Shown: piece after piece, positions 6,127-6,652 of the stretch | Position numbering within the stretch: the stretch's first letter is position 1 | How the letters are laid out: every line of letters starts with the position of its first letter | Virus record (IMG/VR): IMGVR_UViG_2737471826_000003 | Location: 1 to 8,105 of that record | DNA length: 8,105 bases | Source of the DNA: a virus | Taxonomy: Duplodnaviria > Heunggongvirae > Uroviricota > Caudoviricetes | Direction: 5' to 3' (one strand) | Notes under the pieces: model-generated | The model's input: only the letters and a program-made list of their open reading frames with translations | The model's database searches: none | Told to the model about the DNA's origin: nothing | Made by a program: the position numbers and the translations under genes

Positions 6127-6531
6127 ATGAATGATATCTATGCAGTTGTTGATAATAACGTTGTTATTAATGTCATTATCTGGGACGGAATTTCTGAATG
6201 GAAACCAGAGGCTGGTAATTTAGTTCCGTTAAACGGCGATGCTGGCATCGGTTGGTCATATTCAGACGGAGTATTTACCGCGCCACCTCCCCCAGAACGC
6301 TCTCACAACGCGTTAGTTGCGGAGGCTGAGCTGCAGAAATCAGCACTACTGACCGTAGCAAATAACACAATAGCACCGCTGCAGGATGCCGTTGATTTGG
6401 AAATGGCGACAGACGATGAACAGGCGTTACTGCTGGCGTGGAAAAAATACAGGGTACTGCTGAACCGTGTTGATACCTCAGCGGCACCCGAAATAGAGTG
6501 GCCTACGCAACCGGGGGAGCGGGCCAGTTGA
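6127..6531 (+). CDS. Tail fibre assembly chaperone (Tfa / Mu U-like)
   Basis: 134-aa ORF starting one codon after the fibre stop. The C-terminal half ([34 protein letters not shown]) is the hallmark conserved Tfa C-terminal motif. The 5' half is AT-rich and divergent, as in chimeric Tfa proteins. Confidence 0.9.
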
Positions 6532-6652
6532 TATCAGGCGCAGGGTCAGCATCAACTGCTGTCACTGCGTCGATGTAGTCGAGTACCGCATTCAGCCGCG
6601 TTTTTTCATCATCAGTCAGTTTGCGGCCTGCACTTCTCCGTTGACATCTTTG
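6503..6652 (-). pseudogene. 3' remnant of a second, convergent tail-fibre assembly gene (Tfa'/U'-like), N-terminally truncated
   Basis: Hand translation of the minus strand gives ...[40 protein letters not shown]. This carries the Tfa C-terminal signature (DDEK...L..VD...APDI.WP..P) but has no start codon, with an in-frame stop upstream at 6653-6655. Its last 29 nt overlap the 3' end of the + strand chaperone gene. Confidence 0.6.

Follow-up and report, generated by a model that had tools for sequence, protein, structure and literature searches.

A short minus-strand reading frame lying tail to tail with the intact tail-fibre chaperone gene of a prophage is very probably a pseudogene, the dead relic of what was the second chaperone gene in an invertible tail-fibre segment of the e14 type. 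The frame was found in a stretch of 8,105 nucleotides (positions 1 to 8,105 of the IMG/VR virus record IMGVR_UViG_2737471826_000003), hereafter the window, and is convergent with the resident chaperone gene tfa, whose 3′ end it overlaps by 29 nt. On this reading, the SfV/CPS-53-like serotype-converting prophages would descend from phages equipped with an e14-type invertible host-range switch, which would have decayed to differing degrees across lineages and which in this prophage would have left the tail-fibre specificity fixed. Next to the chaperone remnant lies a second relic, the 3′ end of a P22-like tailspike gene, which we regard as a concrete trace of gtr cassettes moving between unrelated phage types, a movement that bears on the spread of serotype conversion. 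The chaperone remnant itself matters little beyond annotation: it is already annotated as a pseudogene in public Escherichia coli genomes, and features of its kind are well known and ordinary. Our literature search found no paper describing this junction, or the remnant as a decayed invertible segment, and likewise no description of a tailspike relic beside gtr genes.

Prophage context and features of the window

Over 7.7 kb, the window matches a prophage of E. coli O17_K12a (L001) at 99.96% identity; in this sibling, gtrC is intact and IS5 is missing. In L001, a Mu-type baseplate module (DNA circularization protein, baseplate assembly proteins, GP46, J/gp47, and YmfQ) is followed, in this order, by a glycine-rich fibre gene, tfa, a pseudogene, gtrC, the GT2 gene gtrB, gtrA (yfdG), intS, and tRNA-Arg. 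This layout matches that of the Shigella phages SfV, SfII, SfI, and SfIV and of the K-12 cryptic prophage CPS-53/KplE1, and the window can be assigned, on the basis of its sequence, to the SfV/CPS-53-like serotype-converting prophages. The features on which the argument draws are as follows, with positions counted in the window.

5194–6126, plus strand: tail-fibre gene, an open reading frame (ORF) matching Pfam Gly_rich_2 (E 7e-19), with a variable, glycine-rich C-terminal part
5472–5495, plus strand: crossover site of the Pin/Gin type, TCTCGAAAACCTTGGTTTGGGAGA, corresponding to the left site in the P segment of e14
6127–6531, plus strand: intact tail-fibre assembly (chaperone) gene tfa, an ORF of 134 aa matching Caudo_TAP (E 4.6e-33)
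6503–6531, both strands: tail-to-tail overlap block of 29 nt, from CTA (minus-strand stop) to TGA (plus-strand stop)
6503–6631, minus strand: convergent tfa2 remnant of the TfaE type, last 42 codons and stop, identified through Pfam, tblastn, and RefSeq
6632–6656, no strand: junction interval between the two relics; tfa′ homology ends at 6631 and the tailspike starts at about 6657–6659
6657–6787, plus strand: 3′ relic of a P22-like tailspike gene, last 42 codons and stop, within the mechanically called ORF 6641–6787
6793–6829, no strand: strong hairpin with 16-nt arms, 94% complementary, between the tailspike relic and gtrC
6833–7717, minus strand: 3′ part (885 nt) of gtrC, an O-antigen glucosyltransferase gene cut by IS5, 99.96% identical to L001
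7718–8105, no strand: end of an IS5 element, 97.2% identical to positions 1–388 of K-12 IS5A

Identity and coding state of the remnant

The initial annotation had described a start-less C-terminal fragment of a chaperone on the minus strand, and closer analysis bears this out. Translation of the minus strand gives a 49-codon open frame at 6503–6652, immediately preceded by an in-frame stop (6653–6655) and without a usable start codon, the sole candidate being a GTG that would yield 20 aa. Homology backs the part from 6503 to 6631, and the rest (6632–6652) is open frame without homology. The backed part corresponds to the last 42 residues (AGRKL...PPVA), or about 21%, of a 200-aa TfaE, and it matches the Pfam profile PF02413 (Caudo_TAP) with 41.3 bits (E 2e-10; gathering score 22.1) over positions 94–130 of 131, the extreme C-terminus of the profile. 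By tblastn, K-12 TfaE is 66.7% identical to it over 45 aa, and other phage Tfa proteins show 74–82% protein identity, so that both kinds of comparison with the Tfa family that had been proposed as a check, tblastn and HMM search, proved significant. At the DNA level, homology to the full-length tfa genes of SfIV and of a P1-like plasmid stops at 6631, and even the nearest full-length relatives of tfa2 are only about 71–75% identical. A search of complete E. coli genomes, in which query positions 1–129 stand for window positions 6503–6631, returned relatives of 60–80% identity in 57 E. coli genomes, and most of the matches listed span 6503–6631. RefSeq (PGAP) labels the identical stretch of L001 (7404–7532) “tail fiber assembly protein, incomplete, missing N-terminus”, the intact tfa of the same prophage being annotated as tail fiber assembly protein WP_000998154.1.

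The remnant thus has the profile match expected of the family that comprises Tfa, Mu U, and lambda gpK, and lacks both a complete domain and a translatable gene, being without a start and reduced to the C-terminus. Because the start and 80% of the gene are missing, we infer that it is a pseudogene fragment and a non-functional member of the Caudo_TAP family.

The tail-to-tail overlap

The intact gene (6127–6531) and the minus-strand frame (6503–6652) share positions 6503–6531, as the initial annotation had noted. This block encodes the W-P-x-x-P ends of both chaperones, and aligned blocks read CTACGC...GGCCAnnTGA, from the reverse-complemented stop of one gene to the stop of the other. It occurs in six systems, namely the window, e14, CPS-53, SfIV, a P1-like plasmid, and a P2-like prophage, and in three of these (e14, the P1-like plasmid L010, and the P2-like prophage L011) a recombinase gene adjoins the chaperone pair. 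The second tfa gene can be arranged in a series of decay that runs from e14, where tfaE (200 aa) is accompanied by stfE and pinE, through gp22 of SfIV (174 aa) and tfaS of K-12 (100 aa), to the 42 aa of the window and, finally, to SfV and SfII, which have none.

A lone crossover site and a decayed switch

The constant part of the fibre gene (5194–5495) is 95–97% identical to its counterparts in SfV, SfII, SfI, SfIV, and e14 (stfP), and the identity to all five is lost at 5495–5498; yfdL of CPS-53 likewise loses identity with the window at 5495. Against e14, an identity of 96% extends over 3828–5498 and ends at the crossover site. This site is offset by 284 nt in the fibre gene, as it is in e14 stfP, and the two share an identical 24-nt core, with one base differing just outside it (position 5496); the published e14 repeat TTGGTTTGGGAGAAGG (PMC12529663) matches the window site at 15 of 16 bases. 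The crossover site is the boundary between the constant and variable parts of the fibre gene.

Of the components of an invertible cassette, the window retains the conserved 29-nt overlap and little else. In place of two convergent sets of fibre and chaperone genes there is one intact set (5496–6531) plus 42 codons, and no second fibre-variable part was found in the window. In place of a pair of inverted sites of the pix/gix/cix type there is the single one at 5472–5495: three patterns, with up to three mismatches allowed, detected no second crossover site, either in the window or in L001, which is free of IS5. An adjacent serine invertase gene (pin/gin/cin) is missing both among the window ORFs and among the annotated genes of L001 from the tail genes to intS, whereas e14, L010, and L011 each have an invertase gene. 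With a single site and no invertase, the switch appears to be dead and the specificity of the fibre locked. The interpretation of the locus in the initial annotation, as what remains of an invertible host-range cassette that has lost its partner fibre gene and most of one chaperone, is supported: the overlap block is shared with five other systems, the close match to e14 ends at the lone crossover site, and neither a second site nor an invertase was found.

The junction and the tailspike relic

A breakpoint had been placed at about 6653, which falls inside the interval 6632–6656 that separates the two relics, although the homology to tfa itself already ends at 6631. The stretch of about 140 bp beyond it, previously taken as unassigned, proved to be assignable: it is the 3′ end of a tailspike gene of the P22-like kind and appears to have come with the gtr cassette. 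The C-terminus of the 587-aa tailspike of a P22-like prophage in E. coli GF66.2 (L005) is 81% identical to the relic over 42 aa (tblastn), and window positions 6704–7720 are 99.3% identical in DNA to GF66.2, the match beginning within the end of the tailspike gene (6704–6787). That prophage has genes for Arc and an antirepressor, and its tailspike contains Head_binding and Beta_helix domains; the relic, by comparison, consists of the last 42 codons only, without the head-binding domain and the beta-helix body. A degenerate pattern for the 5′ part of the relic found no matching full-length tailspike in genome contigs, and a shorter pattern, applied to viral contigs, found only eight copies, all with the same junction.

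The 48-aa ORF 6641–6787 has no Pfam match. It ends in YGTTAQRPVSPIVPVEYYDTTLGLPIWYNGTASSWQRADGTNT, directly before the stop, and this motif recurs, by tblastn, in tail fibre or tailspike genes of 322 phage records. The C-terminal motif of the relic (6657–6787) is about 40 aa long, GTTAQRP...YYDTTLG.PIW.NG...W..A.G, and is matched by no Pfam family; the 322 records are very diverse and include Synechococcus, Bacillus, Pseudomonas, Klebsiella, and Cellulophaga phages, among others. In CPS-53, the place of this ORF, between tfaS and yfdI, is taken by yodE (L002 6498–6644), which encodes a small toxic protein of K-12 that is also 48 aa long. The ORF was accordingly considered as a YodE homologue and rejected, the two sequences being unrelated, and YodE has no detectable phage homologue.

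The hairpin, the gtr cassette and IS5

Between the tailspike relic and gtrC, the hairpin has a folding energy of −24.4 kcal/mol (z −6.3). A simple terminator scan does not call it, because a T-run is missing; it is probably a bidirectional terminator. It lies inside the block common to the window and the P22-like prophage, and at the corresponding position in SfV a rho-independent terminator is annotated.

Intact gtrC of L001 is 1488 nt long and encodes a glucosyltransferase domain-containing protein (Pfam Glucos_trans_II, E 1e-26 for the full protein). The GC content of the gtrC region is 0.28–0.34, as against 0.52–0.63 in the tail genes. L001 has the complete gtrC, gtrB, and gtrA set next to int/att, whereas the window holds only the 3′ 885 nt of gtrC, IS5 having inserted after CTAA, between 7717 and 7718; the partial IS5 ORF matches the NCBIfam IS5 family transposase (E 5e-16). 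Since gtrC is broken by IS5, the gtr cargo is probably inactive in this strain.

The tract shared with GF66.2 can be followed to its end in L001, where a block of 3029 bp (L001 7605–10633; GF66.2 5001–8028) is 98.8% identical. Its content is the hairpin and the genes gtrC, gtrB, and gtrA, flanked by the final 84 nt of the tailspike gene on one side and by about 137 bp upstream of gtrA on the other. The module is thus found in two prophages with different integrases, one of an SfV-like myovirus, at argW, and one of a P22-like podovirus. Operons of gtr genes are known in P22-, P2- and lambda-like prophages (PMC2629481).

The initial annotation had also held that the remnant explains why the cargo sits where it does, and by itself it does not: SfV and SfII carry their gtr cassettes at the same position without a tfa′ remnant. 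As a general rule, gtr cassettes lie between the tail module and att/int, and the remnant marks the junction only.

Distribution

At an identity of at least 95%, the tfa′/tailspike junction occurs in 69 of 5426 complete E. coli genomes, all 69 close copies having the same one, and in eight IMG/VR contigs as well. Sibling prophages share this junction and yet hold at least four different gtrC alleles, and where identity between siblings breaks (L006–L008), it does so inside the tailspike relic. No P22-like counterpart of the gtrC alleles of L006 and L008 was found in complete E. coli genomes. One tentative idea, which we consider possible but doubtful, is that the tailspike relic (about the last 40 codons) and the region upstream of gtrA serve as homology arms for swapping gtrABC cassettes between P22-like podoviruses and SfV-like myoviruses; the occurrence of at least four gtrC alleles at one junction, the breaks inside the relic, and the 98.8% match to a P22-like prophage would all fit it.

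Two further observations concern the siblings. In L006 and L007, the fibre gene (3570–4502) is annotated as a partial stfP pseudogene and a separate glycine-rich CDS, which suggests a frameshift near the crossover site. In L007 and L008 (7569–8900), the tail and gtr module adjoins ybhB-bioA, with no integrase between gtrA and the host genes, and in L001 and L006 it adjoins intS and tRNA-Arg. Given these different neighbours, the prophage type either sits at more than one place in the chromosome or has lost int.

Proposed history and alternative explanations

The ancestor would have carried the constant part of the fibre gene, the crossover site, a first variable part with tfa1, then, in convergent orientation, tfa2 with a second variable part, a second crossover site, and a pin invertase gene, and host range would have been switched by inversion between the two sites. 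A deletion or replacement, or several such events, may then have removed about 80% of tfa2 together with the alternative fibre part, the second site, and the invertase gene. The first 29 nt of the remnant would have survived because they also form the 3′ end of intact tfa, and the next 100 nt would simply not yet have been eroded. Where the lost DNA once began, the remnant is now bordered by what is left of a P22-like tailspike gene, its last 42 codons, which presumably travelled with the terminator hairpin and the gtrABC cassette. Events may well have followed one another in this order. In none of the relatives found does this exact pair of glycine-rich fibre gene and tfa occur together with an intact second set and an invertase, and the ancestral state is for that reason a reconstruction from other lineages.

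Sequence comparison bears directly on two other accounts of the remnant. Both strands of the overlap region, which is nearly palindromic, encode similar ends (...D-I-x-W-P-x-x-P), and the remnant could for this reason be taken as the product of a local inverted duplication, copied from the 3′ end of the resident tfa. Its identity to the C-terminus of that gene is, however, only 43% (E 0.006), as against 67% to TfaE and 74–82% to the Tfa proteins of other phages, so that it is a distinct allele, not a local duplication; moreover, the same overlap geometry is found in intact two-gene cassettes. A duplication is thereby largely refuted, and we regard it as highly unlikely. Still closer to zero is the probability that an artefact of intact tfa, from its reverse strand or from low complexity, accounts for the similarity, a possibility already raised in the initial annotation and one that the 29 nt common to both genes might invite. 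Of the 129 homologous nucleotides, 100 lie outside the plus-strand gene, which argues that the remnant is no antisense or low-complexity product; the Pfam score exceeds the gathering threshold, and the DNA homology to full-length tfa, seen with SfIV and with the P1-like plasmid, runs through to 6631. Together, these points refute the artefact.

The position of the remnant, adjoining DNA of foreign origin (the tailspike relic and the gtr block), raises the question of whether it was itself imported with the gtr cassette from a donor phage instead of being a decayed resident gene. This we judge very unlikely: the block common to the P22-like prophage begins only at 6704, P22-like phages have tailspikes and not Tfa chaperones, the remnant stands in its native 29-nt register with the resident tfa, and the tail module is e14-like right up to the crossover site. 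Nor is there much to recommend the notion that the remnant has been kept for an acquired function, whether by acting on tfa or gtr transcripts as a 3′ UTR or an antisense element or by encoding a small peptide. Its frame is open over 49 codons and its sequence is 95–100% conserved in the 69 genomes, but flanking prophage DNA is equally conserved (97.8–98.2% across about 5.1 kb), so that the conservation reflects recent common ancestry; the frame, besides, has no start codon, and related phages keep remnants of different lengths or none. Retention for function is accordingly also highly improbable. Decay of a resident second chaperone gene is the reading that we prefer.

Comparison with known systems

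The closest analogue is tfaS (b2353) of CPS-53/KplE1 in K-12, a convergent pseudogene that has the same place and geometry and likewise lacks its N-terminus. It overlaps intact yfdK by 29 nt, as the window remnant overlaps tfa, and has the tail-fibre genes on one side and yfdI, the homologue of gtrC, on the other, next to intS and argW. The two differ in length (100 codons kept in tfaS, 42 here) and are diverged alleles of about 70% DNA identity; beyond the break, K-12 has yodE without a tailspike relic, whereas the window has the tailspike relic. In work on KplE1, tfaS has served as a neutral marker (PMC2951348).

The e14 P segment (stfP-tfaP/tfaE-stfE, pinE), whose inversion by PinE, PinQ, and PinR is documented (PMC12529663), provides the template for the intact state. 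The window matches e14 at 96% identity in the baseplate module and in the constant part of the fibre gene, and the two have the left crossover site and the 29-nt tfa/tfa overlap in common. The full second set, the right crossover site, and pinE are found in e14 and not in the window, where, moreover, the first variable part is glycine-rich and of a type other than that of e14.

SfIV, an SfV-like serotype-converting myovirus, holds an intermediate place. Its gp21/gp22 pair includes a second, convergent tfa with the 29-nt overlap and lies between the tail genes and the gtr cassette, as in the window, with the difference that 174 codons of the second gene are kept, followed by an IS element, as against 42 codons here. 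The authors who described SfIV took ORF-22 for an additional chaperone with a possible influence on host range (PMC3851460). In the sequence that we examined (L012 3105–3629), ORF-22 stands in the 29-nt convergent overlap register with an IS element after it, and it has the appearance of a second chaperone left from an invertible segment that has decayed.

For the cargo side of the junction, the nearest counterpart is the P22-like tailspike of GF66.2 with its convergent gtrABC genes, which resembles the present locus in the final 84 nt of the tailspike gene, the hairpin, and gtrCBA (98.8%) and differs from it in having a tailspike of 587 aa where the window has 42 codons, with the head-binding and beta-helix domains absent here.

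Finally, the G segment of Mu and the C segment of P1 (S-U/U′-S′, with gin or cin) follow the same principle of tail-to-tail gene sets inverted by a serine invertase. The 29-nt block is carried by the P1-like plasmid too, and the likeness to Mu is one of principle. The Mu G and P1 C segments are functional switches, whereas the window appears to hold their counterpart as a locked relic.
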